DNA of 24,034 nt from a virus: the UHGV virus genome UHGV-0029496. One strand, written 5' to 3'. This document shows, one piece after another, positions 512 through 12,602 of the stretch. The notes beneath the pieces are model-generated. The model was not told where the DNA came from. It saw only the letters and a list, made by a program, of their open reading frames with translations, and made no database searches. Both the position numbers and the translations under genes were made by a program. Numbering within the stretch: the first letter of the stretch is position 1; each line of letters opens with the position of its first letter.

Positions 512-3139
512 TTAGCTAAAACCGTTGCTGAATCCGCCGGAGAAACCGCGACCGAAGGGTGCGACACCGTCGTATTTATAGAAATCCGCTTCATAGTTAA
601 CCCCGGTAATCTTAACTGTTCTGTCATCTCCGGGGTCAACTGTAGAAACAAGAATCATCTGAGCATTATGCCTTGCTTCGTTGCCGAATGAAAACTCAGT
701 TTTTAGTGCGCTATTCCCTGTGTAAATTGCCTCCTGCGGCGCGGATAACATAACCACTTCACGGTCATGACTTCCAGGAACTACAGCGACGCTCTGGACA
801 CCACCGTCGCGCTTCTTAAGGATTAAAGAGTGGTCGTCACCCGGAGTAAATGTGACAGGCTGTGATAAAGTCAGAGTAAGACCATTAACGGCAACAACAT
901 AGCCGTCTTGAGGCGCTACGCGCGAACCTTTAACGACGCTTATTGCGCGACCCGGCAGCACAAAAACTCCCTCTTCTGTCGCTGTAAAGGACACCGTGAC
1001 TTTCTTCAACAGGTTCTTCTGGTACCGACGGTACGCCGCCCAGTACGCCTGACGATAATTACGTATACCTTTGGAGTCATACGTTTCAGTATTAACACCA
1101 CCTTCGGCTGGGATGCTGATGGTCTCTTTTACGTTAGTATCTGGGTCGATGTAGGAGAACTTAAGACTATCATATACCTGAGCGTCGTTGAACGTTCGGG
1201 TCCACTTCTCCGTAGCTGTAGTCTTGCTGCGATGTGTGAACACCATCTCCGGGCCAATCCGCGGGCGCTCGAAATCCAGTAATATGTCCTGCCCTTTACG
1301 ATATGGTATGCAGAAAATAGCGTCGGCTATTGTGCTGATTATGTCCTGCATAGTCATTTTATAATCGTCAAAAGTGTAGCAGAATTGACCGGCCTCTGCG
1401 TTACCGAAATAGTTTTCTATCTCGTTCTGAGTCGCTAACAACTTGTCCATATTGGATGTGGTTAGGTTGAGATTACCTACTACCGGGTCGCGGGCAAGAC
1501 GGATTAAGGACTGAATCGCCTGAGTATTTGGTGTCATAACCGTGTCGAATACGCCGTTGCCGAGGTATTTGTACACCATCTCTGTGGCAACCATACGTAG
1601 TTGCGGCTGCTTAATCTCCGCGGCCCGCGGCGTCTGCTTACGTGCGGAGTGCACGGTAGTACGGTTGCCGTAATGCGGTGTAGTGTCGCGTACCTGCCCA
1701 TAAAGATTGATGTAGGAAACCTCATCTACCACGGTTCCCTCAAAACTGAGGTCCAGGTCAGTGACGCGGCGGGCACGTACCCTAACTTTCGACCGCATGG
1801 GCAAGTCGGCGTAAATAGTAACACCTGTGTAATCCGCAGAACGACCTGATATAACGGCCTGTTTTGAGTAAACATCACCGTACGGCACGCCAGTTCCATC
1901 AAGGAGTTGATACTGAAGCTCGACAGTTACCGACGTGCGCAATTTACTGCCGTTGTCTTTATACATACCATTCGCGGCCGCGATGTTGGCTACTACACGT
2001 TCAACTTCCAGGCGGTTTAAGGTAGTCCAGTCCGTTAACGACTTATCGTAAGTGTTCGACGGTGAAATCCATGCTTCGGTACCTTGCGTTAAAGGAGTGA
2101 ATCCCGATGGCAATTTTTGCCATGCTGACAACATCCCTCCGACGGCTACTCTTACCTCAAAGTCATCTACGTATGTAACAGTATAGCTACCACTGACGTT
2201 AGCCACGTCTTTTACCAGAATAAGGTTAAAAACAGCTATGTCCCCAACTGATAAAATCTCAGAGAAAGCAGAGTCGCCAGTGTTATCGCGGACGACACCA
2301 GTTGCCCCCTGCAATGAAATCTCACCGGTATCACTGGGATTAACCCTGATGTCGTTCTGCGCTTTAAGAACAGCCCCATCTACCTCGTTCGAGGTAATAG
2401 TTATGTATAGATTTTGATTAATAGGATCCCCTACCAGAAGCTGAGGCGTATTTGTATTGTTAGGGGATGTAAATGGGGCGTATACCGCTACAGAAGTTCC
2501 TGTAATCTCCTGCACTTTAGTATCGCCGTCTGTGATGTCTTCGGCTTTAATATCAAGATACCCGCGACCGGCGTCATAGTAGCCGTATTCAACTACCACA
2601 CCTGCGTCATTGAAGACCTTATACGTAGTCATGAGGTCATTAGGGATAGTCTGGACCCTGCCGCAAATATCATACGACCGTTCATACGGCCGCGGTTTAT
2701 TGTTTCGGTCAGTCAGGCTGTTGTTGGGAGACTCCGCCTGCTGGTTCGCTAAACTCGTTTTAGGCGTTTTCTGCGACGGAGAAATCAACTTGGTAATAAA
2801 TTTAAGCACACCCAAAGGGTCAAGGAGTTTACCCAGAAAACCACCACCGCCGCCAGCACCCTCGATGATATGGAAAACGTCATCTTCTTTCAGCGCTTCG
2901 AAGTTTTCCGTTACGTCTGTATCATCACCAATCTCGCCGCGGTAAATACGCACAGGTACCCCGTCTGGGATGTTAGCAACGACGTATTCCATCGGAGGTA
3001 CGTTATACCGTTTGCGGTCAAAAGTACCGTCTTCGTTACGGGTGTAATGTAATATCAGCGCCAAAATTCTATCTCCGCATAAGTTTCGCGCAAGTCTTCC
3101 AGTCGGTCTAACCGTACCTGGCGACTTGCTAGCTCGCAA
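512..3139 (-). CDS. Tail tip protein: gpI-like N-terminal domain fused to a large J-like central fibre / host-specificity protein
   Basis: 875-codon ORF. N-terminal VRIYRGEIG...VFHIIEGAGGGGGFLGKLL resembles lambda tail assembly protein I (VIHIVPRVAGAKSGG). Track start is TTG at 3139; alternatives are TTG 3064 (GGAGA SD) or ATG 2992. Position after K-like gene. Confidence 0.6.
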   Translation of the reverse strand: MRASKSPGTVRPTGRLARNLCGDRILALILHYTRNEDGTFDRKRYNVPPMEYVVANIPDGVPVRIYRGEIGDDTDVTENFEALKEDDVFHIIEGAGGGGGFLGKLLDPLGVLKFITKLISPSQKTPKTSLANQQAESPNNSLTDRNNKPRPYERSYDICGRVQTIPNDLMTTYKVFNDAGVVVEYGYYDAGRGYLDIKAEDITDGDTKVQEITGTSVAVYAPFTSPNNTNTPQLLVGDPINQNLYITITSNEVDGAVLKAQNDIRVNPSDTGEISLQGATGVVRDNTGDSAFSEILSVGDIAVFNLILVKDVANVSGSYTVTYVDDFEVRVAVGGMLSAWQKLPSGFTPLTQGTEAWISPSNTYDKSLTDWTTLNRLEVERVVANIAAANGMYKDNGSKLRTSVTVELQYQLLDGTGVPYGDVYSKQAVISGRSADYTGVTIYADLPMRSKVRVRARRVTDLDLSFEGTVVDEVSYINLYGQVRDTTPHYGNRTTVHSARKQTPRAAEIKQPQLRMVATEMVYKYLGNGVFDTVMTPNTQAIQSLIRLARDPVVGNLNLTTSNMDKLLATQNEIENYFGNAEAGQFCYTFDDYKMTMQDIISTIADAIFCIPYRKGQDILLDFERPRIGPEMVFTHRSKTTATEKWTRTFNDAQVYDSLKFSYIDPDTNVKETISIPAEGGVNTETYDSKGIRNYRQAYWAAYRRYQKNLLKKVTVSFTATEEGVFVLPGRAISVVKGSRVAPQDGYVVAVNGLTLTLSQPVTFTPGDDHSLILKKRDGGVQSVAVVPGSHDREVVMLSAPQEAIYTGNSALKTEFSFGNEARHNAQMILVSTVDPGDDRTVKITGVNYEADFYKYDGVAPFGRGFSGGFSNGFS

Positions 3140-3420
3140 TGACTGACCATACCATCATAATATACGCCAGCGTGCCAGATTACACGGTTTCTGTGCCGTG
3201 TTGCCATCAGCACGGCATCGAAGTTTTGCGGAGTTTCTACGCGTACGAGGCCTTTAGTGTCTTTATGGCCTTCTTCGAAGGCGTCGTTAATCTGTGTTGG
3301 TGAAGCGACGTTAAACTCTGGCGTAAAAAGACCAGCGTCGGTACGAACGTTACGCACGTGGTGCCAGCAATTACGACGGCGAAAATCGTACGGTAACCCA
3401 GTATAAGAATTAATGTTCAT
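3055..3420 (-). CDS. Tail assembly protein, NlpC/P60-like (lambda gpK-like)
   Basis: ATG at 3420 overlaps the upstream stop (ATGA). Cys-His motifs NCWHHV, WHAGVYYDG, SHCEL fit an NlpC/P60 peptidase core; lies between L-like and I/J-like genes as in lambda. Confidence 0.55.
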   Translation of the reverse strand: MNINSYTGLPYDFRRRNCWHHVRNVRTDAGLFTPEFNVASPTQINDAFEEGHKDTKGLVRVETPQNFDAVLMATRHRNRVIWHAGVYYDGMVSHCELASRQVRLDRLEDLRETYAEIEFWR

Positions 3421-3932
3421 GTAGACAAAACACCACGTAACAATGGGATTACCGAAGGGGTCATTAGTTCACCGGTGGCTCTTTGGTTCAACATAGGGAC
3501 GCCGACGTCAGCTGTGAATATCCCCTTTTCCTGGTTTATCGACTGCAACTCGTATACAACTGGCCCATCAGCCGGGTAGGTTAAATCTGTGCTGACGAAA
3601 CGGCGGAATATGAACTTAGGTAACACCGTATTGTCCGGCGGTATGCGGTCCATCTCATCGTCTAATTGGTTACCGATGTCAGGTAATGCGAACGACGCCC
3701 GCTGGTCCATGTCGTTATTGTTGGCGGCTCCTTTAGCCTCCATAGGGGTGGCTTCAAACGTAACGACTTCGCCGGTCTCTAACGTCGCCGTCAGGTCGGA
3801 AGTTCCGCGGACAAGCAAATACCGCTTCGAAAGAAGCGGGTGTACTATCTCCAGCGTCGTGTAGTCAATTTCGCCGTCGGGATTTGAGGCCAGCTTACGG
3901 CGATAGGCAGCTTCTACTGATTCCTGGCTCAT
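3417..3932 (-). CDS. Minor tail protein, gpL-like N-terminal domain
   Basis: 171 aa; position between M-like and K-like genes; loose pattern resemblance to lambda gpL N-terminus, but lacks the C-terminal Cys cluster. Confidence 0.4.
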   Translation of the reverse strand: MSQESVEAAYRRKLASNPDGEIDYTTLEIVHPLLSKRYLLVRGTSDLTATLETGEVVTFEATPMEAKGAANNNDMDQRASFALPDIGNQLDDEMDRIPPDNTVLPKFIFRRFVSTDLTYPADGPVVYELQSINQEKGIFTADVGVPMLNQRATGELMTPSVIPLLRGVLST

Positions 3933-3935
3933 AAA

Positions 3936-5306
3936 TTAACCGTCCACATTAAAGTCGATACGAGTGATGTATTTACTACCCCACACGGAATCTGCCTGTG
4001 GAATAATGGCGTAATCATCTACAGCCGGAACGTTCACCATGGAGCCATCTGAATAGGCAATGTCGATACTTGTTGCGCCGTTCATTACTACTTTTGCTGA
4101 TGCCGTCGTGCGCGTTCCTGGTGACAATTCGGTTACTATCGGGGACGAGGCAAAGCCGCGTTTTTCTATTTGCGGATTGAAAACAATAATTCCGCTAATA
4201 CCATCTCCCTGAAATGAGCCGTTTGTTGCAGAGGCGTATAGCATAACCCTGTACTGAGCTGATAACGAAGATAGCCTCGATGCGTCGAAAGATATTGATA
4301 CAGACGCATAACCACCAAGATCCGCAATAGATGCCACTCCACCGAACGATGATTTGATAACTTTGCTATCAATGTCTGCAACAACAGATGCGACGTCAAA
4401 ATTATCCGAGTTTCTTATATATAATCTTAAAAAATCCAAACCATTACCAGCCGCTATGACGCTGAATGTAACATAATCTTCTGCATCTAATTGCATGTTT
4501 TGAGAAAAGTAATGAGACCCGCTGGTTGTAGTAGCGATCACTGAAAATATATCCGATGTAGCTTCTCTATTGACTGTGACGTTTGTTAGTGAAGAAGATG
4601 AAATGTCTCCTGAATTTATATAAAGATTTTCAGAATAATATTCTGGAGGCACCCGTCCGACAGCAACCCCATCGATAAACGTAAGGGGCCATTCATTTAC
4701 GGCGGACTGCACAAGATTACCGTTTCGGTTGATGTAATAAACCTGCGGCCCGTCATACACAATGCGACTATCCAGCGTGAGCGCCAGAAGGTTGATCGGC
4801 GGATAGCCGGCTGGCCCTTCATCGCTCCTGATGCGCGGGAACGTAGTCTCATAGTTCGCGTATACTTTCAGGAAACTACCCAGACAATCCCCGTAACAGC
4901 CATACAAATCTGGCAGATTCTTAGTAAGACATGTGTCTTCCTGAATTGCTGTGCGCTCTGCTGTAGCAGTAAACGTAATGACCCAGTTTTTACCGTCGTC
5001 TGTGCTATCGCTAATGTCGGACGTAATAAGAACCTTGTGGTCTTCGATACCTAAACCGGTATCATGAGGCATGATGAACGAAGATGCCCCGCCGTCTATG
5101 TTATTCAGGAAGCTATAGAAAGCCTGACGGCCTAGTGACGATACGACCAGGGTAACGCTAATAGGTACCGGTTCGAAGTATGTATCACGCCCCTGTCGAG
5201 GCACGCCACCTTGCACTTCTGTACGCCAGATATTACTCCCTCGCGTTTGGGAGTACCCCTTCGACACTATTGGTCGAAGGGACATAGGGAATCTCAAATC
5301 ACTCAT
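3936..5306 (-). CDS. Distal tail protein, gpM-like N-terminal domain with long C-terminal extension
   Basis: 456 aa directly after the tape measure gene; N-terminus has the GYSQ motif seen in lambda gpM (GDGYSQRAP); about 340 extra residues, partly encoded by a visibly AT-rich segment (about 4380-4700). Confidence 0.55.
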   Translation of the reverse strand: MSDLRFPMSLRPIVSKGYSQTRGSNIWRTEVQGGVPRQGRDTYFEPVPISVTLVVSSLGRQAFYSFLNNIDGGASSFIMPHDTGLGIEDHKVLITSDISDSTDDGKNWVITFTATAERTAIQEDTCLTKNLPDLYGCYGDCLGSFLKVYANYETTFPRIRSDEGPAGYPPINLLALTLDSRIVYDGPQVYYINRNGNLVQSAVNEWPLTFIDGVAVGRVPPEYYSENLYINSGDISSSSLTNVTVNREATSDIFSVIATTTSGSHYFSQNMQLDAEDYVTFSVIAAGNGLDFLRLYIRNSDNFDVASVVADIDSKVIKSSFGGVASIADLGGYASVSISFDASRLSSLSAQYRVMLYASATNGSFQGDGISGIIVFNPQIEKRGFASSPIVTELSPGTRTTASAKVVMNGATSIDIAYSDGSMVNVPAVDDYAIIPQADSVWGSKYITRIDFNVDG

Positions 5307-5309
5307 TGG

Positions 5310-7619
5310 TTAATACCCCGGCTGGTTTCGTGTAGCCCGGCGGGACTTGGAGATTGCACTGTTGCTGTCTTGTAACGCCGCCGATACTGTTTCACTGATG
5401 ATAACACGTAACCGCCCTTCGTCGTCACGCTCTGTAACGGCGGAATCAACTCGTCCGGTGGTGTTGTTGACGATTGTCACGCTGTCACCGCCTGACTTGT
5501 TGCCGTTCTCGCCCATAATCTGGCGCATTTGTTCGGCGGTACGGACGCGTGATGCCCCCGCTGGCATAATAACTTCAGGCTTGTTACGTTCGGCGATGGT
5601 GGATAGTTGCCCGGCGGCTAAGTTACCGCCCTGCTCACGAGCCGAACGAATCTTACCAATGTTCGCCAGACCTGCTGCTACCGCTGCCGCGGCAGCTACG
5701 GGGCCGAGTACCCATCCGACAATAGGAATCGCGGACGCAGATTTATAAGCCTCGATGGCGGAGGTGTATGTGGCTATTGTAGCCTGAGCAATAGCAAACG
5801 CTTTATACGCGCTAGACGCTTCACCAAGTGACGACTTAATATTGTCCGCCATCATGCCGAAAGCGTTACCCGTAGCGTTGGCGCGCTTCAAAGCATACTG
5901 GCCGTTTATCGCGTTAACCGCGGCCTGATACTGTTCCTCGTTTATAAGATTTTGTTCCCGGTACCGGTCTGCAACGTCCAGTTTTTGCTGTTCCTGAATC
6001 TCGAGAAGCTCAAGCTCAGCGGCATTCTGGCCCATAATCTGGGCCATGAAGTCTTCACCTTTCTGGTTCTTTTCCTGCCGTTCTTTCTCTCGCTTGGCGA
6101 GTTCTTCCTGGCGTGCGGTGTCCGCCTCCAGCATAATCTGAGTTTTGGCGTTTTCGTACTGCTGCTGGCTTATTGTTCCTGCTCGGTTGAACTCTTCGAG
6201 TTTCGCCAGTTTCTGTTCTTCCGCCGCGGTGATACGAGAAATTTCGTCTCCGGTTGTACGGTCAACCGTAGCTAGGAAATCTTCTGCGGCTTTCTTCTGG
6301 CGTTGTGCTGCCATTTCTTCACGTTTGGTCTGTGCCGCCAGACGTTCCTCGTTCGATTTAGCCTCTCGGTCGGCCTTCTCTTTCTCGGCCTTGTCAATGC
6401 GGGCGATGTCTTGCTGCGCTTCCGCGTCACGAGCGGCATTATACGCTGCAATCTGTTCTTTGGTGACGGCTTCACGTTTAGCGAACGCCTGTTTATCGAG
6501 TTCAGCTTGCGCCCGGATGCGCTCACGGTCACTTAGGATGGCGATTTGCTGGTTCTTAACAATGGCTTCGTTCTGTTCCTGGAATCTCTGCGTGGTTGAG
6601 TTGACGTTACGACCAAGATTCTTTTGAGCCTCCGCTGCCGCGTTTGCTGACTTCTCCGCGTTCTCCAGTGCCGTGGCGTTCTTGTTGGCATTGTCAGTAA
6701 GGCGTATAAGTTCCGGGTTCAACTGTTCCGTGTTACCTAGCCAGTCGGTGAACACATCGGCGATGCGACGGGCGTTCTCCGCGGTCGGCTCTTTGTTAAA
6801 CGCACTCTGCGCCGCTATCATCTCCAGCGCCTGGTCGCGGTTAACCCCGAACTTACTGCTAAGCTCCGCAATGTTCTGCGCCAGCATGTTGACGCCTACG
6901 ATATTACCCTCGTAAGTGCCGCCGAGTTTTTCTAACGTGTCGCCTACATCAACGCCCTTAGATACCAATGCATCATACTGGCTAATCGCCGATGCCGTGG
7001 ATGCTTTCCACGTTTCCCACGATTCTGCGTCCTCGCGAATGGCTTTAGCTGTTTGCTGCGCGATAAGGTCCGCGTTGGCCTTAGCTAGAGCAAGCTGAGT
7101 CTCCGCCGCTTCTCTGCTGATTTGGGTAAGCTGGATAAGGCCGTCTGTCAGTTCAAGAGAACCGGATGCCGTTTGCTGGAAAGTATCTTTTAACTGCTTC
7201 TGCGCAGCTTCGAGGTCTTTTGAACTGCCTTCTGCTTCGGTTAGCGATTTATACAGGACACCGCCAATTGCTGACGCAAGAGCAATTACAGCCCCAAGCA
7301 CCGCACCACCGGGGCCGAAAGCACCAGCAAGTTGGGAACCTTGCTGCCCTATCGCAACGAATGCAGACGTACCGGATTGCAACTGGACTACCATGTCCTG
7401 CACCTGGTAACCAACCTGCTCGGCGGCATTGCGGAACTTGGCAAAACCGTCGAACACGGCTTTAGACGTAGCGGAATTTACTTTATTAACATCCGGCGTT
7501 AGTTTGTTTACAGATGTGTCCGCCCGGTCTGCGGATGCCGCCATAGCGTCAAGCTGTTTAGCAGCTGCATCAGCGCCTTCTGTTTTTACTCTGGCAATTA
7601 GGGAAGCCGTATCAGCCAT
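5310..7619 (-). CDS. Tail tape measure protein
   Basis: Long Ala/Gln/Glu-rich alpha-helical ORF downstream of the G/T chaperone pair, with Gly-rich hydrophobic segments. Track start is TTG at 7634; first ATG is at 7619 (MADTASLIARVK...). Confidence 0.8.
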   Translation of the reverse strand: MADTASLIARVKTEGADAAAKQLDAMAASADRADTSVNKLTPDVNKVNSATSKAVFDGFAKFRNAAEQVGYQVQDMVVQLQSGTSAFVAIGQQGSQLAGAFGPGGAVLGAVIALASAIGGVLYKSLTEAEGSSKDLEAAQKQLKDTFQQTASGSLELTDGLIQLTQISREAAETQLALAKANADLIAQQTAKAIREDAESWETWKASTASAISQYDALVSKGVDVGDTLEKLGGTYEGNIVGVNMLAQNIAELSSKFGVNRDQALEMIAAQSAFNKEPTAENARRIADVFTDWLGNTEQLNPELIRLTDNANKNATALENAEKSANAAAEAQKNLGRNVNSTTQRFQEQNEAIVKNQQIAILSDRERIRAQAELDKQAFAKREAVTKEQIAAYNAARDAEAQQDIARIDKAEKEKADREAKSNEERLAAQTKREEMAAQRQKKAAEDFLATVDRTTGDEISRITAAEEQKLAKLEEFNRAGTISQQQYENAKTQIMLEADTARQEELAKREKERQEKNQKGEDFMAQIMGQNAAELELLEIQEQQKLDVADRYREQNLINEEQYQAAVNAINGQYALKRANATGNAFGMMADNIKSSLGEASSAYKAFAIAQATIATYTSAIEAYKSASAIPIVGWVLGPVAAAAAVAAGLANIGKIRSAREQGGNLAAGQLSTIAERNKPEVIMPAGASRVRTAEQMRQIMGENGNKSGGDSVTIVNNTTGRVDSAVTERDDEGRLRVIISETVSAALQDSNSAISKSRRATRNQPGY

Positions 7620-7983
7620 CTTCTCTGCCCTCAAATATTCCGTCTAAGCCCATGATAACCTCGGCTTCGAACAAACTTATGCCGTAACCGGCGACATCAC
7701 GAAACGCTACCAAATCTTGCCATTTGAGCGCATCGCGCGGGATTATAACGATAGTATCATCTGTTTCGCGCTGTAGGAATTTAATGGCACGGTATTTCTC
7801 GAACACGTCGATAAGAGAAACGGGGCATTCTGGCCCCGTCGCTTCTTTCATCTGCGGTTCTTTAATCACGCCCATTGCAATCAAAGCCGCCTGGTGCCCT
7901 GCCGCGATGTCGTCGAATTGCTTACGTTTGTGGCGGTCGACAAAGCACCATTGCGCAAACTCATACAGCGCTTTTACTTTTCC
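7612..7983 (-). CDS. Tail assembly chaperone -1 frameshift extension (gpT-like), expressed as a G-T fusion
   Basis: The -1 frame relative to the G ORF is open from 7998 to the stop at 7612-7614 and overlaps the last G codons; slip candidate G-GAA-AAG at 7977-7983 (minus strand) just before the G stop. Confidence 0.45.
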   Translation of the reverse strand, partial: GKVKALYEFAQWCFVDRHKRKQFDDIAAGHQAALIAMGVIKEPQMKEATGPECPVSLIDVFEKYRAIKFLQRETDDTIVIIPRDALKWQDLVAFRDVAGYGISLFEAEVIMGLDGIFEGREDG

Positions 7984-8390
7984 GAGAGTTTCTCGCGGCT
8001 ATCAGTATGGTGCTTAACTACGGCTTCTGCCAGTCCGCTGTACTGGTCAAACAGGTTAGCCAGCGCCTCTTTGCTGAACGGTTCGTCGAATGACCAACCG
8101 GTGACGATTTCCACGGCAAGCTGCTTGTTCAGGTCCATCACCCGCCAGCCCTTCTCATCGTTATAGCGCGCCCAGTTATTCAGTGCCTCGCACTCTTTAT
8201 CTAATGGCGCAAGTTCTTCCGTAAGGCGGCGAATTGCCGTTGTGTAGGCGCGGCCCGCACGAACACCCGCGTCACAATCGGGGCCAATGACCTGCAACCA
8301 TTCGCCGGAGTCCTTACCACTCGGCAGAAGGATAGGCATTTTAGTGCCGGCGGCGTGGCGGTCGGCAAAATAGAAATCAGAAAGTTTCAT
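7974..8390 (-). CDS. Tail assembly chaperone (gpG-like)
   Basis: 138 aa acidic protein immediately upstream of the tape measure gene; AAGGA SD before ATG 8390; followed by an overlapping -1 frame ORF. Confidence 0.55.
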   Translation of the reverse strand: MKLSDFYFADRHAAGTKMPILLPSGKDSGEWLQVIGPDCDAGVRAGRAYTTAIRRLTEELAPLDKECEALNNWARYNDEKGWRVMDLNKQLAVEIVTGWSFDEPFSKEALANLFDQYSGLAEAVVKHHTDSREKLSEK

Positions 8391-8482
8391 TCTTTAATCC
8401 TTTGGTTAAGAGGTTACGGGTTAAGGTTGACGCGCCAGACGGGAACCACCCGCTTTTCGTGTGCGACACTAGGCGCAAACTT

Positions 8483-8516
8483 ATTCTAGCACACTACTTG
8501 CACACCCCAATATAAT
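8483..8516. promoter_or_regulatory. Divergent promoter candidates in the 164-bp gap between the chaperone gene (minus) and the plus-strand cassette
   Basis: Plus strand: perfect TATAAT at 8511-8516, about 40 nt before ATG 8555, weak -35. Minus strand: TAGAAT (plus 8483-8488) with TTGGGG 16 nt upstream. Confidence 0.25.
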
Positions 8517-8554
8517 AGGGTACTATTCACCTGTAACTTACTGAGGAAATAATT

Positions 8555-8881
8555 ATGCGTAAATTAGTATTAGCTCTGGGGTTTATGTCTTTTGCGGCTT
8601 TTGGGTCCTCGTGCGAACAGGCATTTAGTGAATCTGTTCTTATGACTTCTGGTGTGCTTGAGAAAGCCGACCCTACTATTGTAAAGGCATTTAGGGACTC
8701 TACCGTTCGCGAGTGTGAGGCCGCCGTGGAGGTTGGTAAATCGGGCCTACCCCCGCAAGCCGTAACATACACGGTAATACGTTCGGTAGAGAAAAACGGA
8801 GATGCGTTTTACAGCCTACTGACAGCCACCCGTCTGCAAATGGTAATGACGGGTTGGGCAGTAGGCGCAGAAAGTAAATAG
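8555..8881 (+). CDS. Small secreted protein or possible lipoprotein
   Basis: GAGGAA SD 6 nt before ATG; N-terminus MRKLVLALGFMSFAAFGSSC is a classic signal peptide with Cys at 20 (non-canonical lipobox); three Cys in total. Confidence 0.6.
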   Translation: MRKLVLALGFMSFAAFGSSCEQAFSESVLMTSGVLEKADPTIVKAFRDSTVRECEAAVEVGKSGLPPQAVTYTVIRSVEKNGDAFYSLLTATRLQMVMTGWAVGAESK

Positions 8882-8945
8882 TTGCCTTTATTTAAAGAAC
8901 GCACTGTGGCTAAATAGGACAAATCCTAAACACGAGGAAGTAAGT

Positions 8946-10076
8946 ATGGCCCAGAAGAAAATAACCGACGAACAGTTACAGGAAGAATTGAACGCCGGGA
9001 TGAAGAATATCGACATCGCACGTAAATATGGCATCTCAGACCGCGTTATTCGTATCCGTAAAGCGAAGCTGGCTAAGAAAGGTGTAGGCCACGGGCGTGA
9101 CGTTAGTCACCTTGTGCCGGACGGTTACAAGATTAAAGGAACGTCGTCACTGGTGGACGAGTTCGGCAACACTAAGTTGCAATGGGTTAAGACCGACACC
9201 GATGCCGAACGTCAGGTCGAATTGATGAAAGCCGTAATCGAAGGAATGAAGTCAGAGATTACGCCAGTTGCGCCTGTTAAAGCCATTCGCGCTAAACGCG
9301 ATGACAAGCTACTTAATCTTTACACGGTATCTGATTTTCATCTCGGTATGCTGGCATGGGCGGATGAGAGCGGCGACGACTGGGATATGAAGATTGCGGA
9401 AGACCTGTTCTCCCGATGGTTCGACGCGGCATTCCAGAAAGCACCGGATGCAGGAACAGGAGTTATTAATCTGTTAGGTGACTTCGCACACTTTGATAGT
9501 CTTGATGCCGTTACGCCCGAGTCGTGCCATGTGCTAGACGCGGATACGCGCTACCAGAAACTTGTCCGCTACATGATTCGCATGGTCCGCCGTGTTGTTG
9601 ATATGGCGCTGGTTAAGCATAACACCGTAAAACTTTTAATCATTCAAGGTAACCACGACCCTGTCGGCTCCGTATGGCTGTCCGAAATGTTCTGCACATT
9701 GTATGACAACGAACCTCGCGTATTTGTGGACACCTCCCCCGACGTATACAAGATGGTTCAGCACGGGAAAACTACACTATTCATGCACCACGGACACCGT
9801 GCGAGATTCGACGCCATAGAGTCGGTAATGATTTCTAAATTCCGTAAGGCTTTCGGAGAAAGCACATACAGCTACGCCCACGTAGGCCACCTGCACCATC
9901 AGAAGATTGTAGAAAGCCGTAACATGATTGTTGAGCAACACCGCACCTTAGCGGCTAAAGACGCCTACGCCTCTCGCGGCGGATGGATGTCAGGCCGTAG
10001 CGCGAATGTAATTACTTATAGCGCCGAATATGGTGAGGTCGCTCGTTTAACTATTTCACCGGAGATGCTGGGATGA
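8946..10076 (+). CDS. HTH domain fused to a calcineurin-like metallophosphoesterase (Mre11/SbcD-like motifs)
   Basis: GAGGAAG SD; N-terminal HTH-like segment IDIARKYGISDRVIRIRKAKL; motifs DFHLG (DxH), GDFAHFD (GDxxD), GNHD, HHGH, GHLHH in the canonical order. Confidence 0.7.
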   Translation: MAQKKITDEQLQEELNAGMKNIDIARKYGISDRVIRIRKAKLAKKGVGHGRDVSHLVPDGYKIKGTSSLVDEFGNTKLQWVKTDTDAERQVELMKAVIEGMKSEITPVAPVKAIRAKRDDKLLNLYTVSDFHLGMLAWADESGDDWDMKIAEDLFSRWFDAAFQKAPDAGTGVINLLGDFAHFDSLDAVTPESCHVLDADTRYQKLVRYMIRMVRRVVDMALVKHNTVKLLIIQGNHDPVGSVWLSEMFCTLYDNEPRVFVDTSPDVYKMVQHGKTTLFMHHGHRARFDAIESVMISKFRKAFGESTYSYAHVGHLHHQKIVESRNMIVEQHRTLAAKDAYASRGGWMSGRSANVITYSAEYGEVARLTISPEMLG

Positions 10077-10303
10077 CTTCAAAATACAACCGCACAATGA
10101 CAAACACCCACGGCAGCACTATGACTGTAGACGTTTACGATGTTCTCCGTGCTTTCGACATCCGCGACCCAGCGCTACAGCACGCATTAAAGAAACTGCT
10201 GTGCATGGGCTTGCGTGGTCACAAGGACACCGGGACCGACTTAGCGGAAGCGATTGAAAGTCTGGAGAAGTTACAGGAATACCGGAGTAATATTGATGAG
10301 TAA
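10073..10303 (+). CDS. Small hypothetical protein, translationally coupled to the phosphoesterase gene
   Basis: ATG overlaps the upstream TGA (ATGA at 10073-10076); 76 aa, helical and charged (DPALQHALKKLL...DLAEAIESLEKLQE). Confidence 0.55.
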   Translation: MTSKYNRTMTNTHGSTMTVDVYDVLRAFDIRDPALQHALKKLLCMGLRGHKDTGTDLAEAIESLEKLQEYRSNIDE

Positions 10304-10451
10304 GAAAAAGCGAACCCCAAACAACAACAACAACAACGTCCCGTATACCCCGCTGCCGTTTCCAGAGCCTAACAAGCCCTCGCCGCTTATGTCGGACAAC
10401 GAATGGCGGCGGGTCGCCAGAATGACCATCCGCCTGAGAAGACTGGCTTGA
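10296..10451 (+). CDS. Small Asn/Pro-rich basic protein
   Basis: ATG 10296 with GGAG 9 nt upstream, overlapping the end of the previous ORF by 8 nt; 51 aa MSKKKRTPNNNNNNVPYTPLPFPEP...; contains the (AAC)6 tract. Confidence 0.4.
   Translation: MSKKKRTPNNNNNNVPYTPLPFPEPNKPSPLMSDNEWRRVARMTIRLRRLA
10320..10337 (+). repeat. Perfect trinucleotide microsatellite (AAC)6, in frame (Asn6)
   Basis: aacaacaacaacaacaac read directly. Confidence 0.9.
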
Positions 10452-10463
10452 CCGATAAATAGT

Positions 10464-10483
10464 AAGGCCCTGAAAGGGGCCTT
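10464..10483 (+). terminator. GC-rich hairpin after the three-gene operon (weak terminator or attenuator)
   Basis: aaggccc-tgaaag-gggcctt, 7-bp stem, no clear U-tract. Confidence 0.3.
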
Positions 10484-10496
10484 ATCGCAACAGGAG

Positions 10497-10991
10497 ATGA
10501 TTATGGACTGGAATGAATTTTTCATATACGACTTAATTTCAGGAAGGATATTTAACAGAGTAACACGTTCCGGGAGGGCTAAGGCTGGAGAGGAGGCAGG
10601 TACGGTACAGCGAGACGGATATAGAAGGATATTTTTCAGGGGTAAATGGCACGCGGCGCACCGTATAGCTTGGGACTTAAACAATACTAACAATAAGCTA
10701 ACCTCGTCAGATCAAATAGACCATCTAGACCATAACCGAATAAACAATAGGCCGCTTAACTTAGCTAAAAAGTCCAATGCGGAAAACCATAAAAATATGT
10801 CAAAACAGCGTAATAATAAATCAGGAGTAACCGGGGTTTACTGGAACGCGAAAGAAAGGTTGTGGTACGCACAGATATTCAACAATAACGTAAAAACACA
10901 CATCGGGTGCTTTAAAACGCTACTAGATGCAGTTGCCGCAAGGAGAGTTGCTGAAAGAGATTTAGGGTTCCACGAGAACCACGGTAAATAG
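10497..10991 (+). CDS. HNH homing endonuclease with C-terminal AP2-like DNA-binding domain
   Basis: HNH core AHRIAWDL...IDHLDHNRINNRPLNL; C-terminal GVTGVYWNAKERLWYAQI...IGCFKTLLDAVAARR is AP2-like; Asn-rich and AT-rich codon usage unlike neighbours. AGGAG abuts ATG 10497, so ATG 10503 may be the true start. Confidence 0.75.
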   Translation: MIMDWNEFFIYDLISGRIFNRVTRSGRAKAGEEAGTVQRDGYRRIFFRGKWHAAHRIAWDLNNTNNKLTSSDQIDHLDHNRINNRPLNLAKKSNAENHKNMSKQRNNKSGVTGVYWNAKERLWYAQIFNNNVKTHIGCFKTLLDAVAARRVAERDLGFHENHGK

Positions 10992-10992
10992 T

Positions 10993-11016
10993 AAGGCCCC
11001 TTTCGGGGCCTTTTCC
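10993..11016. terminator. Bidirectional rho-independent terminator between convergent genes
   Basis: aaggcccc-tttc-ggggcctt followed by ttttcc on the plus strand; also U-rich on the minus strand. Sits between the plus HNH stop (10991) and the minus major tail stop (11017). Confidence 0.7.
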
Positions 11017-12183
11017 TTACGCGTAGCTAATACGCTGTATTACAATAGAAGATTGATATTGATTGCCTGTGGACTGTCCTTCTATGCTCTGAGTTATTGA
11101 TTCTGGCCCCCCAATCTCTGGTGTAACCGCCGTAAGTTCTGCGCGTTTCAGGCTGAAAGACATAGCCCCGTTTACCCCGGCCAGAATAGAGTTAATCTCC
11201 ACCTGCTGTTCGTTGATAAACTTCTGAATCATCACCATGTCGTACAGCTTGCCGGAGATAGAGAAGGTGTTAGCCGCGCGACCACGTTCCACGAACGCAA
11301 CGCTACTGTTGCCGAGTTCGAACTGTGCGGAAGCACCGTTGTCGTTGGTGATGGTCAGAGTATCGCAACGCAACGGCGTAGAGCCGTCGAACACAGACAC
11401 ATCTACAGATGAGAACGGCTCATCGGTAAACGTCACCTGAGAGAAATCAGAGCCTGCTGGCGGTGCGGTAAGAATCTCCTGACTCAGGCCGATGAACGGG
11501 AAGCTGCCAGTTACCATAGCGTTAACCGCCTGCTCTACGGTGAAGCCGGAGATTTCCACGCCTTTGGTGAGCATATACGCGTCCGGGTTGCCGCACTGGC
11601 CCTTGAACCACGTCAGGATGGAGAACGTCTTACATGCGTTACCGGTTTCCAGCTTGTCACCCGTTTTTGCGTCAGTGGTTACTGTCTCAGCCGTTAGCGT
11701 GTGCTGAATGCCAGCACCCGTAACTACCAGAGCGGAAACCGCAGTTACGATGAACGGTTTGGCGTTGTCGCCGGTTAAGCCGGTGAACGCAATCAGGTCG
11801 CCAACTTCTACGCCGTCAGTGACGAAGCTACCCGCCGCGCGAGTGAACGTCTTGCCAGTTGGCTCTACAGTGATGGACGCGCCCGTAATTTCTGCCCCAG
11901 CCTGCCATGTAGAAGTCATCGCGCCTGCAAGGAAATCATCCTGGCTACGGGAGCTAAGTTCAATAGCATACTCCCCGCTAACCTGCTTGTTACCGGTTCG
12001 GATGGATGTAGTTTCACGGCTGCCGTCGAGTTCGTTGGAAGTAAGCGCATCGCGGGTTACGGCAGGAACGCCGCCAGTGTTACGCAACGGTGACCATACC
12101 GGGTTAGTCGGTGTTACGCCCGGGGTAGTTTCCGCCACATAGAATTGCGCGGTATTCGCGCCCTTAAAAGGAGTTGTAGCCAT
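11017..12183 (-). CDS. Major tail (tube) protein
   Basis: 388 aa Thr/Gly/Ser-rich beta-type protein after the neck genes; AAGAGG SD before ATG 12183 (track start is GTG 12189); TGAATATG junction with the upstream gene. Confidence 0.6.
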   Translation of the reverse strand: MATTPFKGANTAQFYVAETTPGVTPTNPVWSPLRNTGGVPAVTRDALTSNELDGSRETTSIRTGNKQVSGEYAIELSSRSQDDFLAGAMTSTWQAGAEITGASITVEPTGKTFTRAAGSFVTDGVEVGDLIAFTGLTGDNAKPFIVTAVSALVVTGAGIQHTLTAETVTTDAKTGDKLETGNACKTFSILTWFKGQCGNPDAYMLTKGVEISGFTVEQAVNAMVTGSFPFIGLSQEILTAPPAGSDFSQVTFTDEPFSSVDVSVFDGSTPLRCDTLTITNDNGASAQFELGNSSVAFVERGRAANTFSISGKLYDMVMIQKFINEQQVEINSILAGVNGAMSFSLKRAELTAVTPEIGGPESITQSIEGQSTGNQYQSSIVIQRISYA

Positions 12184-12185
12184 AT

Positions 12186-12602
12186 TCACAGCCTCTTGGT
12201 GAATGCAATAAAGTTAATAGACAATGGTCGTTTGGCCCATCCGTTCTCTACAATCAGCGGCCCCAGGCTAACCGATTGAACCTCGGCGCAGATGTCGTTA
12301 CGTGAAAATGACTTACCTGCTTTAAACGCCGTGTTAAGTAAGTCTGCCATTTTATTGATTGGCGCGCTACCTTTCACCGATGCGTAGTTAATGTCAACCT
12401 GATAAATACCTGAGCGTTGTTCCGTGAAGAACAAATCAGCCTGCTCGGTATCCGCAAGTAACATGTAACTTGCCAGATACGGAGTATCGGTTGACGTCGG
12501 CGCGTCGATGTTTTCAAGCGCGACCTTGATGCCGTTGGTGGTTCCGAAGGCTACCAGTGGCACATCGAACGCTTTTGTTAAGTCCTCAAAGTAGCCCATC
12601 AT
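12186..12602 (-). CDS. Neck protein, tail-terminator-like by position
   Basis: 138 aa; start overlaps upstream stop (ATGATGA); immediately upstream of the major tail gene. Confidence 0.4.
   Translation of the reverse strand: MMGYFEDLTKAFDVPLVAFGTTNGIKVALENIDAPTSTDTPYLASYMLLADTEQADLFFTEQRSGIYQVDINYASVKGSAPINKMADLLNTAFKAGKSFSRNDICAEVQSVSLGPLIVENGWAKRPLSINFIAFTKRL

Follow-up and report, generated by a model that had tools for sequence, protein, structure and literature searches.

A helix-turn-helix-fused metallophosphoesterase of a Kagunavirus siphophage and the exchangeable small genes downstream of it

Described metallophosphoesterases and the locus under study

Phage T5 encodes a predicted metallophosphatase, A1, that is both required and sufficient for host DNA to be degraded and that, in its annotation and in the same work, is also reported to be involved in host transcription shutoff (bioRxiv 10.64898/2026.04.02.716235). 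In mycobacteriophage A10ZJ24, the metallophosphoesterase (MPE) gp48 has been tied experimentally to host DNA degradation; by the paper's description its motif I lies at residue 10 (mutant D10G; PMC12287305), and so we see no room in gp48 for an N-terminal helix-turn-helix (HTH).

Enzymes of solved structure offer further points of comparison. Mre11/SbcD nucleases combine a binuclear MPE fold with a C-terminal capping (DNA-specificity) domain and a Rad50/SbcC partner; PolD DP1, the archaeal 3'-5' proofreading exonuclease, is likewise an MPE nuclease, extended by an N-terminal domain and partnered by DP2; Rv0805 and CpdA represent the class III phosphodiesterases. The PPP-type Ser/Thr phosphatases (lambda PP-like) carry the motif shapes GDxHG, GDxVDRG and GNHE. 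Among phage families, phrog_704 is labelled 'DNA repair exonuclease' in PHROG, a label that is itself a prediction. We found no experimental work on this family in the literature, and for the phosphoesterases of Kagunavirus, Jerseyvirus or Drexlerviridae our search returned genome reports only.

The DNA analysed here, a stretch of 24,034 nt to which we refer as the window, belongs to a Kagunavirus (Guernseyvirinae) siphophage. The genes for an HTH-bearing MPE and for proteins of 76 and 51 aa (p76 and p51) lie on the + strand, inside a − strand tail operon, in an island that is flanked by the genes for the tail assembly chaperone (7974–8390) and the tail tube (11017–12189). The earlier note had placed the three reading frames, their overlapping junctions and the island as we find them (Table 1). 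The mechanical p51 reading frame opens at TTG 10254, and the gene call in one related contig uses the ATG that we list. Downstream of p51, the hairpin at the end of the unit coincides with the first copy of a 34-nt direct repeat (10453–10486), and its T-rich tail is seen on the − strand only. A promoter scan of the island gave a number of sites not above that for shuffled sequence.

Table 1. Features of the + strand gene unit (positions in the window; residues of the MPE)
Feature	Position	Strand	Remarks
HTH-metallophosphoesterase gene (MPE)	8946..10076	+	376 aa; phrog_704 member; ATG 8946, TGA 10074–10076; Shine-Dalgarno GAGGAAG, 8934–8940
Three-helix HTH domain, residues 8–44, GerE / sigma-70 region 4-like	8967..9077	+	AF2 and profile matches
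Family-specific beta-hairpin and helix, residues 61–102, between HTH and core	9126..9251	+	AF2
MPE catalytic core, residues 119–376	9300..10073	+	motifs, invariant residues, fold matches
Motif I DFHLG, residues 130–134	9333–9347	+	read from sequence
Motif II GDFAHFD, residues 178–184	9477–9497	+	read from sequence
Motif III GNHD, residues 235–238	9648–9659	+	read from sequence
Motif IV HHGH, residues 281–284	9786–9797	+	read from sequence
Motif V GHLHH, residues 314–318	9885–9899	+	read from sequence
p76, small conserved phage protein (beta-hairpin and three helices); optional MPE neighbour	10073..10303	+	ATG 10073 overlaps MPE stop (ATGA); TAA 10301–10303; GGAG 10060–10063
p51, basic Asn/Pro-rich small protein; rare accessory gene	10296..10451	+	ATG 10296; 8-nt overlap with p76; GGAG 10282–10285
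GC-rich hairpin at end of MPE-p76-p51 unit	10453..10486		stem 10464–10484

A divergent metallophosphoesterase with an N-terminal HTH

The window MPE matches the phrog_704 profile at E 3e-163 (3.1e-163), residues 3–375 being aligned on positions 1–389 of 390. By sequence comparison it is a typical member of a known, uncharacterised phage family, and we see no substantive difference between it and the phrog_704 proteins that GenBank calls 'calcineurin-like phosphoesterase' in Guernseyvirinae and Drexlerviridae. All five metal-ligand motifs of the calcineurin-like superfamily (DxH, GD, GNH(D/E), H, GHxH) are found, and in an alignment of 50 diverse homologues (30–49% identity) D130, H132, G178, D179, N236, H237, H282, G314 and H317 are invariant. 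To judge from this alignment, the active site is complete and conserved, and the invariance of the catalytic residues indicates that enzymatic activity is under selection; dN/dS values of 0.055–0.07 describe purifying selection on the gene.

The MPE falls short of the Pfam gathering threshold for either model, Metallophos or Metallophos_2 (22.2 bits vs a cut-off of 27 in one case and 18.7 vs 21.5 in the other), and the superfamily assignment rests on motifs and fold; we regard the protein as belonging to a divergent clade outside the reach of the curated Pfam models. An NCBIfam search gave nothing useful, and a single-sequence search of the PDB returned just an HTH match, to FixJ (E 1.6). When the MPE profile was searched against the PDB, the MPE-domain matches were weak and non-significant, and all were to nucleases (SbcD/Mre11 and 'Nuclease MPE', 6nvo).

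Evidence for the fold was derived from an AF2 model (pLDDT 91.8), which in Foldseek matched 110 PDB chains at E <= 0.001; the first 50 of these, without exception, have the MPE fold. The motif matches of the earlier note are not chance ones, as the invariant residues and the phrog_704 match show. The top solved structures are Mre11 (4o43), PolD DP1 and Rv0805, at E ~1e-7 and TM ~0.35–0.4; since all three score alike (Rv0805, at E 1e-7, is indistinguishable from Mre11 and DP1), the model's fold matches do not separate a nuclease from a cyclic-nucleotide phosphodiesterase.

The closest of these by Foldseek, Thermotoga maritima Mre11 (4o43, E 7e-8), is also the best of the weak MPE-domain profile matches, and shares the binuclear MPE fold and the five motifs with the window MPE, but at an identity of just 12–13% and a TM of ~0.4. 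Furthermore, the window MPE has no capping domain in the AF2 model, because the protein ends with its core at residue 376; no Rad50/SbcC gene stands beside the MPE gene, either in the window or in the related loci that we examined; and, unlike Mre11/SbcD, the window MPE begins with an HTH and a beta-hairpin. PolD DP1 (5ihe, E 9e-8) resembles it in being extended at the N-terminus, whereas the identity is 10–12%, the rmsd is high, the window MPE lacks a DP2 partner, and we detected no OB fold in it. Several phage MPE homologues carry the annotation 'DNA polymerase II small subunit'. The motif shapes of the PPP phosphatases are not those of the window MPE, which has SDFHLG, GDFAHFD and GNHD; the GDxxH shape of motif II is familiar from Mre11. 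The likeness to Mre11/SbcD rather than to PPP enzymes that had been proposed from motif I is supported insofar as Mre11/SbcD is among the nearest solved folds and the PPP shapes are absent. Two T5 proteins were also tried as relatives and rejected: A1, which belongs to another family (phrog_1745), shows no relationship to the MPE core beyond that of the superfamily (hhalign probability 20%, the alignment being confined to 21 columns near motif III), and A2, the separate DNA-binding protein of T5, shows no similarity to the HTH.

The N-terminal HTH-like segment, also predicted in the earlier note, appears in the AF2 model as helices 8–16, 21–28 and 32–44, and matches GerE at E 9e-4. Across the 50 family members, 11 match Sigma70_r4_2 (best 1.5e-9), and the best GerE match is 2.4e-8; going by these profile matches, the HTH belongs to the phrog_704-type MPE family as a whole. 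Between HTH and core, residues 61–102 form two strands (61–70 and 76–85) and a helix (87–102) at a pLDDT of ~84; in the 50-sequence alignment G74 is invariant, and the conservation of W80 and K82 is 90% or more.

Distribution and candidate roles of the enzyme

MPE homologues occur in 2,048 phage records (tblastn), and, where proteins are clustered at 50% identity, they number 4,490 cluster representatives. Many Kagunavirus genomes encode MPEs that are 93–97% identical at the same site between tail assembly chaperone and tail tube, and the gene is also found in T1-like, Dhillonvirus, Jedunavirus, Vibrio, N4-like and Campylobacter phages. Its genome contexts differ, and include replication modules and the interval between lysis and terminase genes. 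In Kagunavirus and Jerseyvirus it is the constant gene of the opposite-strand island, and the genes that flank it vary. Separately, a scan of genome contigs gave two MPE loci only, one of them on a Pusillimonas chromosome. Across ~90 loci, the neighbours that recur in distant lineages are a PNKP-type HAD phosphatase, a dNMP-kinase-like P-loop protein and DUF7768, to which may be added a MazZ-type dGTP_diPhyd_N protein, ThyX, dCTP deaminase, endonuclease VII and DNA ligase.

Our preferred reading, to which we give a probability of roughly 60%, is that the MPE is a stand-alone, HTH-fused binuclear metallophosphoesterase of a phage-specific family, a phosphodiesterase or nuclease that is directed to DNA and has a part in the DNA or nucleotide metabolism of the phage, and that p76 and p51 are separate accessory genes. 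The HTH would bring the enzyme to DNA, on which it would act as a Mn2+/Mg2+-dependent phosphodiesterase or nuclease after the manner of Mre11/SbcD or PolD DP1. That it would serve DNA or nucleotide metabolism is suggested by its recurring neighbours, which fit such a role; the likeliest tasks would be to degrade host DNA and so replenish the nucleotide pool, or to process DNA ends. Phage MPEs tied to host DNA degradation have precedents in T5 A1 and A10ZJ24 gp48, which are possible functional analogues of the window MPE.

A bolder proposal is possible, albeit rather unlikely: that the phrog_704 HTH-MPE is the host-DNA-degrading or nucleotide-salvage nuclease of T1-like and Jersey-like siphophages that has long gone unrecognised, a counterpart of T5 A1 in which the DNA-binding partner is fused as the HTH. 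DUF3310-like small proteins might, in this proposal, modulate or restrain the enzyme in a loose, replaceable two-part module; p76 would be one of them, and the canonical DUF3310 proteins that are encoded near distant MPE genes in two other loci (L078 and L080) would be others.

The phosphatase and kinase neighbours could instead be taken to describe an end-healing enzyme, a 2',3'-cyclic phosphodiesterase or 3'-phosphatase that would join a PNKP-type phosphatase, kinase and ligase in mending broken RNA or DNA, e.g., tRNA cut by host anticodon nucleases. The model here is the MPE domain of Clostridium thermocellum Pnkp (CthPnkp). A HAD_PNKP phosphatase gene (E 1e-19 to 9e-21) overlaps the MPE stop in Klebsiella phage MEW1 as well as in 16 Kagunavirus loci; in Vibrio phage JSF38 and one further locus (L067), the phosphatase gene lies 46–199 nt downstream. 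The Kagunavirus loci and JSF38 have a P-loop kinase gene after that for the phosphatase, and JSF38 also has genes for endonuclease VII (upstream) and an ATP-dependent DNA ligase (downstream). However, a dedicated 3'-phosphatase next door would leave an MPE phosphatase redundant, and the match of the kinase is to dNMP kinase (phrog_139), not to polynucleotide kinase. Moreover, the window lacks the phosphatase/kinase pair, as do about half of the Kagunavirus loci, neither gene is near the MPE in T1-like phages, and the HTH suits DNA targeting better than tRNA repair. We consider end healing unlikely.

The top fold matches include a class III cyclic-nucleotide phosphodiesterase (Rv0805), and we also weighed, as the earlier note had suggested, an anti-defence phosphodiesterase that would destroy the cyclic-nucleotide signals of CBASS, Pycsar, type III CRISPR or Thoeris immunity. 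The position of the MPE in a variable opposite-strand island, which candidate superinfection-exclusion genes adjoin, is consistent with this idea; the MPE is nevertheless the constant gene of that island amid variable ones, and it is kept in ~2,000 phages with differing genome contexts. Constancy in the island, together with presence in many lytic phage genera, argues for a routine function over an accessory anti-defence cassette. In addition, the conserved DNA-binding HTH has no obvious role in the degradation of small molecules, and we found neither a link in the literature nor a match in PADLOC-DB, which returned nothing for the MPE, p76, p51 or a 108-aa protein at E up to 1. An anti-defence role is accordingly graded as very unlikely, and the assignment to defence or a toxin-antitoxin system that the earlier note had entertained finds no support in these searches.

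We hold it to be equally unlikely that the HTH-MPE is mainly a transcription or host-shutoff factor, in which a sigma-70-region-4-like domain would target promoters or RNA polymerase and the MPE domain would cut DNA there or regulate. Such a role would agree with the Sigma70_r4_2 and GerE matches in many family members, with a weak match of the MPE to phrog_836, 'late transcriptional activator' (E 0.0013), and with the part reported for T5 A1 in transcription shutoff besides DNA degradation. On the other hand, the invariant catalytic residues speak for selection on enzyme activity, we see no sign of sequence-specific binding, and the HTH similarity is generic, given that many HTH families match.

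The genes downstream of the enzyme

The window places p76 and p51 directly after the MPE gene, and the earlier note had taken the overlaps to imply 'stoichiometric co-expression' of the enzyme with two 'obligate small partners'. Comparison of 37 loci in which the MPE is at least 90% identical gives a different picture. The p76 gene overlaps the MPE stop in 11 of them and is parted from the MPE in 10, by a gene for a 66-aa protein (six loci) or an HNH gene (four loci); in the remaining 16 loci, p76 is replaced by the HAD_PNKP phosphatase and the dNMP-kinase-like gene. One and the same ATGA junction with the MPE is used alike by p76, the 66-aa gene and the phosphatase.

Farther afield, p76 follows the MPE directly in several Jerseyvirus loci, but was absent from the vicinity of the MPE in the Drexlerviridae, Dhillonvirus, Jedunavirus and Vibrio phages examined. 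In the T1-like phage 12397IV, the MPE gene (33703–34827) and a p76 homologue (42486–42686) are 7.7 kb apart, and Acinetobacter phage P115 has the p76 domain and no MPE. The p76 family therefore occurs far from the MPE or without it, and a dedicated link between the two finds no support. A looser functional link of the MPE with p76-type small proteins may exist, since p76 adjoins the MPE in 21 of the 37 close loci and in Jerseyvirus, and DUF3310 proteins are found near distant MPEs.

As a protein, p76 is conserved: homologues are present in 782 phage records, and dN/dS values of 0.01–0.15 indicate purifying selection. The AF2 model (pLDDT 88) has the helices that the earlier note predicted, three in number, and a beta-hairpin as well, so that p76 is not purely helical. 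This model has no significant fold match in the PDB, and searches with the sequence gave no PDB or Pfam match; p76 does align with the C-terminal ends of phrog_2452, phrog_17613 and others. Both p76 and the DUF3310/SaV proteins (the latter early proteins) are small phage proteins with a similar order of motifs: in hhalign, HALKKLLCxGLRGHKDxxxDLxEA of p76 aligns in the same register to (Q/E)xxxKYxxRxxxKxxxxxxDxxKA of sk1 SaV and canonical DUF3310. These matches are weak (E 0.009 and probability 4.6% for sk1 SaV; E 0.05 and 1% for a canonical DUF3310 protein), and Pfam DUF3310 (PF11753) does not match p76 even at E up to 10, so that p76 is at most a candidate member of this group. One GenBank record calls a p76 orthologue 'DUF3310 protein'.

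The p51 gene, which contains an (AAC)6 run, is far rarer in this setting. As a component of the supposed system it recurs in one other contig (L082) in all collections searched, that is, in 1 of 72 related loci, and none of the 71 IMG/VR loci with a related MPE has it. The p51 protein matches phrog_17117 (E 3.7e-13) and has homologues in 27 phage records, 24 of them at 52–56% identity in Seuratvirus-type phages and none in Kagunavirus; its exact sequence is not on record, and a homologue search gave just two proteins. The closest relative (94%), encoded in L082, differs at too few positions for a dN/dS estimate. Between the window and L082, dS falls from 1.31 in the MPE gene through 0.46 in p76 to 0.03 in p51; so unequal a dS along three genes of the same two genomes, with a ~40-fold spread, points to mosaicism.

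In light of these comparisons of gene order and sequence, p76 and p51 are best described as passengers of a mosaic region that can be exchanged for other genes, and not as partners that the MPE requires. Least probable of all the readings, and one that we hold to be highly improbable, is an obligate three-protein module (a complex or toxin/antitoxin-like) with its stoichiometry set by translational coupling: stop and start codons overlap at both junctions, p76 directly follows the MPE in the close and Jerseyvirus loci noted above, and the p76-p51 overlap is seen again in L082, but the variable gene slot, the shared ATGA junction, the separate occurrence of p76, the near-absence of p51, the dS differences and the lack of PADLOC matches all count against it. 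According to our preferred reading, that of a stand-alone DNA-targeted enzyme, phage mosaicism would have put p76 and p51 downstream of the MPE, and the stop/start overlaps would be the ordinary packing of compact phage genes rather than the mark of a stoichiometric complex.

The MPE family is very common, with members in ~2,000 sequenced phages, among them many candidates for phage therapy directed at E. coli, Salmonella and Klebsiella. A catalytic site predicted to be intact, a putative DNA-binding domain, constancy in a mosaic island and neighbours of nucleotide metabolism together give a concrete hypothesis on its function.

An intact metallophosphoesterase fused to a helix-turn-helix domain

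All of the sequence features that the earlier note had listed (the MPE reading frame, its motifs and both gene overlaps) are present, and its assignment of the 376-aa protein as a helix-turn-helix (HTH) metallophosphoesterase (MPE) is sound: the match to phrog_704 spans the whole protein (E 3e-163), and its five phosphoesterase motifs are not chance matches, with D130, H132, G178, D179, N236, H237, H282, G314 and H317 invariant in an alignment with 49 homologues of 30-49% identity. Matches to the Pfam Metallophos models fall short of the gathering scores, which puts MPE in a divergent clade. Modelled by AlphaFold2 from the same alignment (mean pLDDT 91.8), the protein matches 110 PDB chains at E ≤0.001, of which the top 50 all have the MPE fold. 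The N-terminal HTH is also real: the model places three helices at residues 8-44, GerE matches the N-terminus (E 9e-4; best across 50 family members, 2.4e-8), and HTH models match many of these 50 (Sigma70_r4_2 in 11, best 1.5e-9). Between HTH and core, residues 61-102 form a family-specific β-hairpin and helix in which G74, W80 and K82 are conserved. The gene is under purifying selection (dN/dS 0.055-0.07), and its product is an intact, conserved enzyme with a fused HTH. It is also a typical member of a phage gene family that is very common (2,048 phage records) and already annotated but uncharacterised; in BFVD the family is large, restricted to phages and without a named function.

Layout of the island

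The DNA around the MPE region is 87-93% identical to many Escherichia Kagunavirus (Guernseyvirinae) genomes. MPE, p76 and p51 belong to a five-gene + strand island within the - strand tail operon (Table). The MPE start codon is preceded by a Shine-Dalgarno sequence, GAGGAAG, that ends five nucleotides before it; the MPE TGA (10074-10076) overlaps the p76 ATG as ATGA, the p76 TAA (10301-10303) overlaps the p51 ATG (8-nt overlap), and GGAG lies 9-10 nt 5' of both the p76 and p51 starts.

Table. Features of the window and of related loci (L handles) compared with it
Locus	Feature	Coordinates	Strand	Remarks
Window	second chaperone	7612-7884		same flank as the 7974-8390 chaperone and tape measure gene
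Window	tail assembly chaperone	7974-8390	-	Phage_TAC_4; island flank
Window	108-aa protein	8555-8881	+	N-terminal hydrophobic, signal-peptide-like segment; phrog_14165
Window	MPE, 376 aa	8946-10076	+
Window	p76	10073-10303	+
Window	p51	10296-10451	+
Window	(AAC)6 run	10320-10337		within p51; encodes Asn6
Window	34-nt direct repeat	10453-10486 and 10982-11015		copies 79% identical
Window	GC-rich hairpins	10464-10484 and 10992-11012		one inside each repeat copy
Window	HNH endonuclease	10497-10991	+	HNH_3; phrog_99, E 5e-49
Window	tail tube gene	11017-12189	-	Phage_tube_2; other island flank
L082	span compared with window 8946-10451	2167-4150		Logan contig
L013	HAD_PNKP-type phosphatase and kinase	4628-5667		phosphatase 161 aa, phrog_415, ATGA overlap with MPE; kinase 184 aa, P-loop, phrog_139 'dNMP kinase'
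L006	neighbours of distant MPE	4627-5501
L064	neighbours of distant MPE	4765-5325
L075	neighbours of distant MPE	4572-5667
L067	neighbours of distant MPE	5260-5904
L078	canonical DUF3310 protein	2787-2996		just 5' of MPE
L080	canonical DUF3310 protein	2287-2493		just 5' of MPE
L009	p76-domain fusion	2497-3228		Pseudoalteromonas phage PS_L5
L090	p76-domain fusion	41097-41678		Acinetobacter phage P115

The slot 5' of MPE is bimodal by tblastn in related loci: it holds either the 108-aa protein, whose signal-peptide-like segment reads MRKLVLALGFMSFAAFGSSC..., or, in many relatives, a small membrane protein of no relation to it that carries the label 'imm / superinfection immunity'; these may be alternative superinfection-exclusion morons. 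At the other end of the island, the 34-nt repeat brackets the HNH gene, and in relatives that lack this gene the last island gene lies within ~30-40 nt of the tail tube gene; the region 10453-11015 looks like a homing-endonuclease cassette that inserted at the terminator and duplicated it. In 7974-12189, a 2.6-kb block of + strand genes, closed by hairpins, lies between the tail tube gene and the chaperone, and transcription of the tail operon must either cross the island in antisense or begin anew upstream of the chaperone; a promoter scan of the island gave nothing above the shuffled-sequence level.

A swappable slot after MPE

The proposal that MPE, p76 and p51 form a three-gene system with obligate partners does not hold: the downstream slot is variable, p51 is rare, and the p76 family is independent of MPE. 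We located homologues of the island genes by local tblastn in 71 IMG/VR loci encoding close to moderately distant MPE relatives, and in annotated phage loci. Among the 37 loci with an MPE at least 90% identical to that of the window, the slot has four states: p76 overlapping the MPE stop (11/37), an unrelated 66-aa gene and then p76 (6/37), an HNH endonuclease and then p76 (4/37), or a 161-aa HAD phosphatase and a 184-aa P-loop kinase instead of p76 (16/37). The genes after MPE are swappable accessory genes. Since the ATGA junction serves three different genes (p76, the 66-aa gene and the phosphatase), the overlap is a property of the MPE gene end and not the sign of a dedicated partner. The 16 close Kagunavirus loci with phosphatase and kinase are L013, L014, L016, L017, L019, L023, L025, L026, L028, L034, L035, L037, L041 and L061-L063; Vibrio phage JSF38 (L005) has the same gene order, followed by an ATP-dependent DNA ligase, and Klebsiella phage MEW1 (L085) has an MPE-phosphatase pair.

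The p76 protein, previously described as helical, is modelled by AlphaFold2 (pLDDT 88) as a β-hairpin followed by three helices; nothing in Pfam and no PDB sequence or fold matches it. One GenBank record names an orthologue DUF3310, and hhalign pairs p76 in a consistent register, below significance, with lactococcal SaV and a canonical DUF3310 protein; p76 is a possible DUF3310 member. The protein is under purifying selection (dN/dS 0.01-0.15). Members of its widespread family (782 phage records) are either stand-alone proteins of 70-100 aa or form the C-terminal domain of ~190-245-aa proteins (phrog_2452, phrog_17613). In the T1-like phage vB_EcoS-12397IV, 7.7 kb separates MPE from the p76 homologue; in phage P115, the domain ends a 193-aa protein and MPE is absent; among Klebsiella phage records of the phage collection, 468 have MPE and 24 have p76. 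Some of the C-terminal fusions (193-243 aa in L009 and L090) go under the name 'terminase ATPase subunit' or 'terminase large subunit'; the fusions contain no Pfam domain, their genomes carry true terminase genes elsewhere, and the labels are probably misannotations.

The p51 protein, basic and with a conserved C-terminal half, occurs in 0/71 IMG/VR loci and has two relatives among 5.8 billion protein clusters. Its 27 matches in the phage collection include none in Kagunavirus records and 24 (52-56% identity) in Seuratvirus-type phages; the CAjan homologue adjoins a dUTPase gene, and the 5-kb stretch covered there has no gene annotated as a phosphoesterase. The one close relative (94%) is in a single Logan contig, L082, where an HNH gene lies between MPE and p76. 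Synonymous divergence between window and contig is 1.31 for MPE, 0.46 for p76 and 0.03 for p51; such unequal values reveal separate gene histories, the signature of mosaic exchange, and indicate that the p51 segment was recently exchanged horizontally. The AAC run in p51 is a slippage-prone coding triplet repeat; L082 has Asn4 where the window has Asn6.

Likely function of MPE

Foldseek on the AlphaFold models, a check suggested earlier, recovered the MPE fold, but nothing in the PDB for p76. The top matches of MPE are Mre11 (4o43), PolD DP1 (a proofreading exonuclease) and Rv0805 (a cyclic-nucleotide phosphodiesterase), all at E ~1e-7 and TM ~0.35-0.4; with these tied, fold alone leaves the substrate undecided. 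The earlier lean towards a nuclease is reasonable. Every weak profile match to an MPE domain in the PDB falls on a nuclease (SbcD/Mre11, Nuclease MPE).

Three lines, the family-wide HTH, genomic position and recurring neighbours, point to DNA or nucleotide metabolism. Position varies by phage group, usually among replication or nucleotide-metabolism genes: MPE follows helicase, VRR-NUC and Dam in a T1-like phage and primase in Jedunavirus MEW1, adjoins ThyX and dCTP deaminase in an N4-like roseophage, and in JSF38 lies between endonuclease VII and the phosphatase, kinase and DNA ligase. Several neighbours are shared across unrelated lineages: HAD_PNKP phosphatase (Kagunavirus subset, MEW1, JSF38, L067), dNMP-kinase-like protein (Kagunavirus subset, JSF38), DUF7768 (L006, L064, L075) and MazZ-type dGTP_diPhyd_N (L006, L067). 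The latter two recur downstream of distant homologues (40-61% identity), and canonical DUF3310 proteins lie just 5' of MPE in L078 and L080; these three kinds of small, nucleotide-metabolism-like gene make up a loose neighbourhood of the family.

Bearing in mind these neighbours, MPE could possibly heal ends, with the PNKP-type phosphatase, the kinase and the ligase working beside it, but it would then be redundant with the phosphatase next to it, and none of the three genes is in the window. An anti-defence cyclic-nucleotide phosphodiesterase is compatible with the fold; it fits poorly with the HTH and with an MPE that is the constant gene of the island and broad across lytic phages (PADLOC gave no matches). 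Sigma-region-4-like targeting in host shutoff is speculative.

Two phage MPEs of other families provide precedents: T5 A1 is both required and enough on its own for chromosome digestion (bioRxiv 10.64898/2026.04.02.716235), and mycobacteriophage A10ZJ24 gp48 is experimentally tied to host-DNA degradation (PMC12287305). A1 is not detectably of the same family as MPE, and no resemblance links T5 A2 to the MPE HTH. On the three lines and these two precedents, we favour MPE being a DNA-targeted phosphodiesterase or nuclease; the substrate and the physiological role, in which the enzyme would feed or process DNA for the phage, are both inferred.
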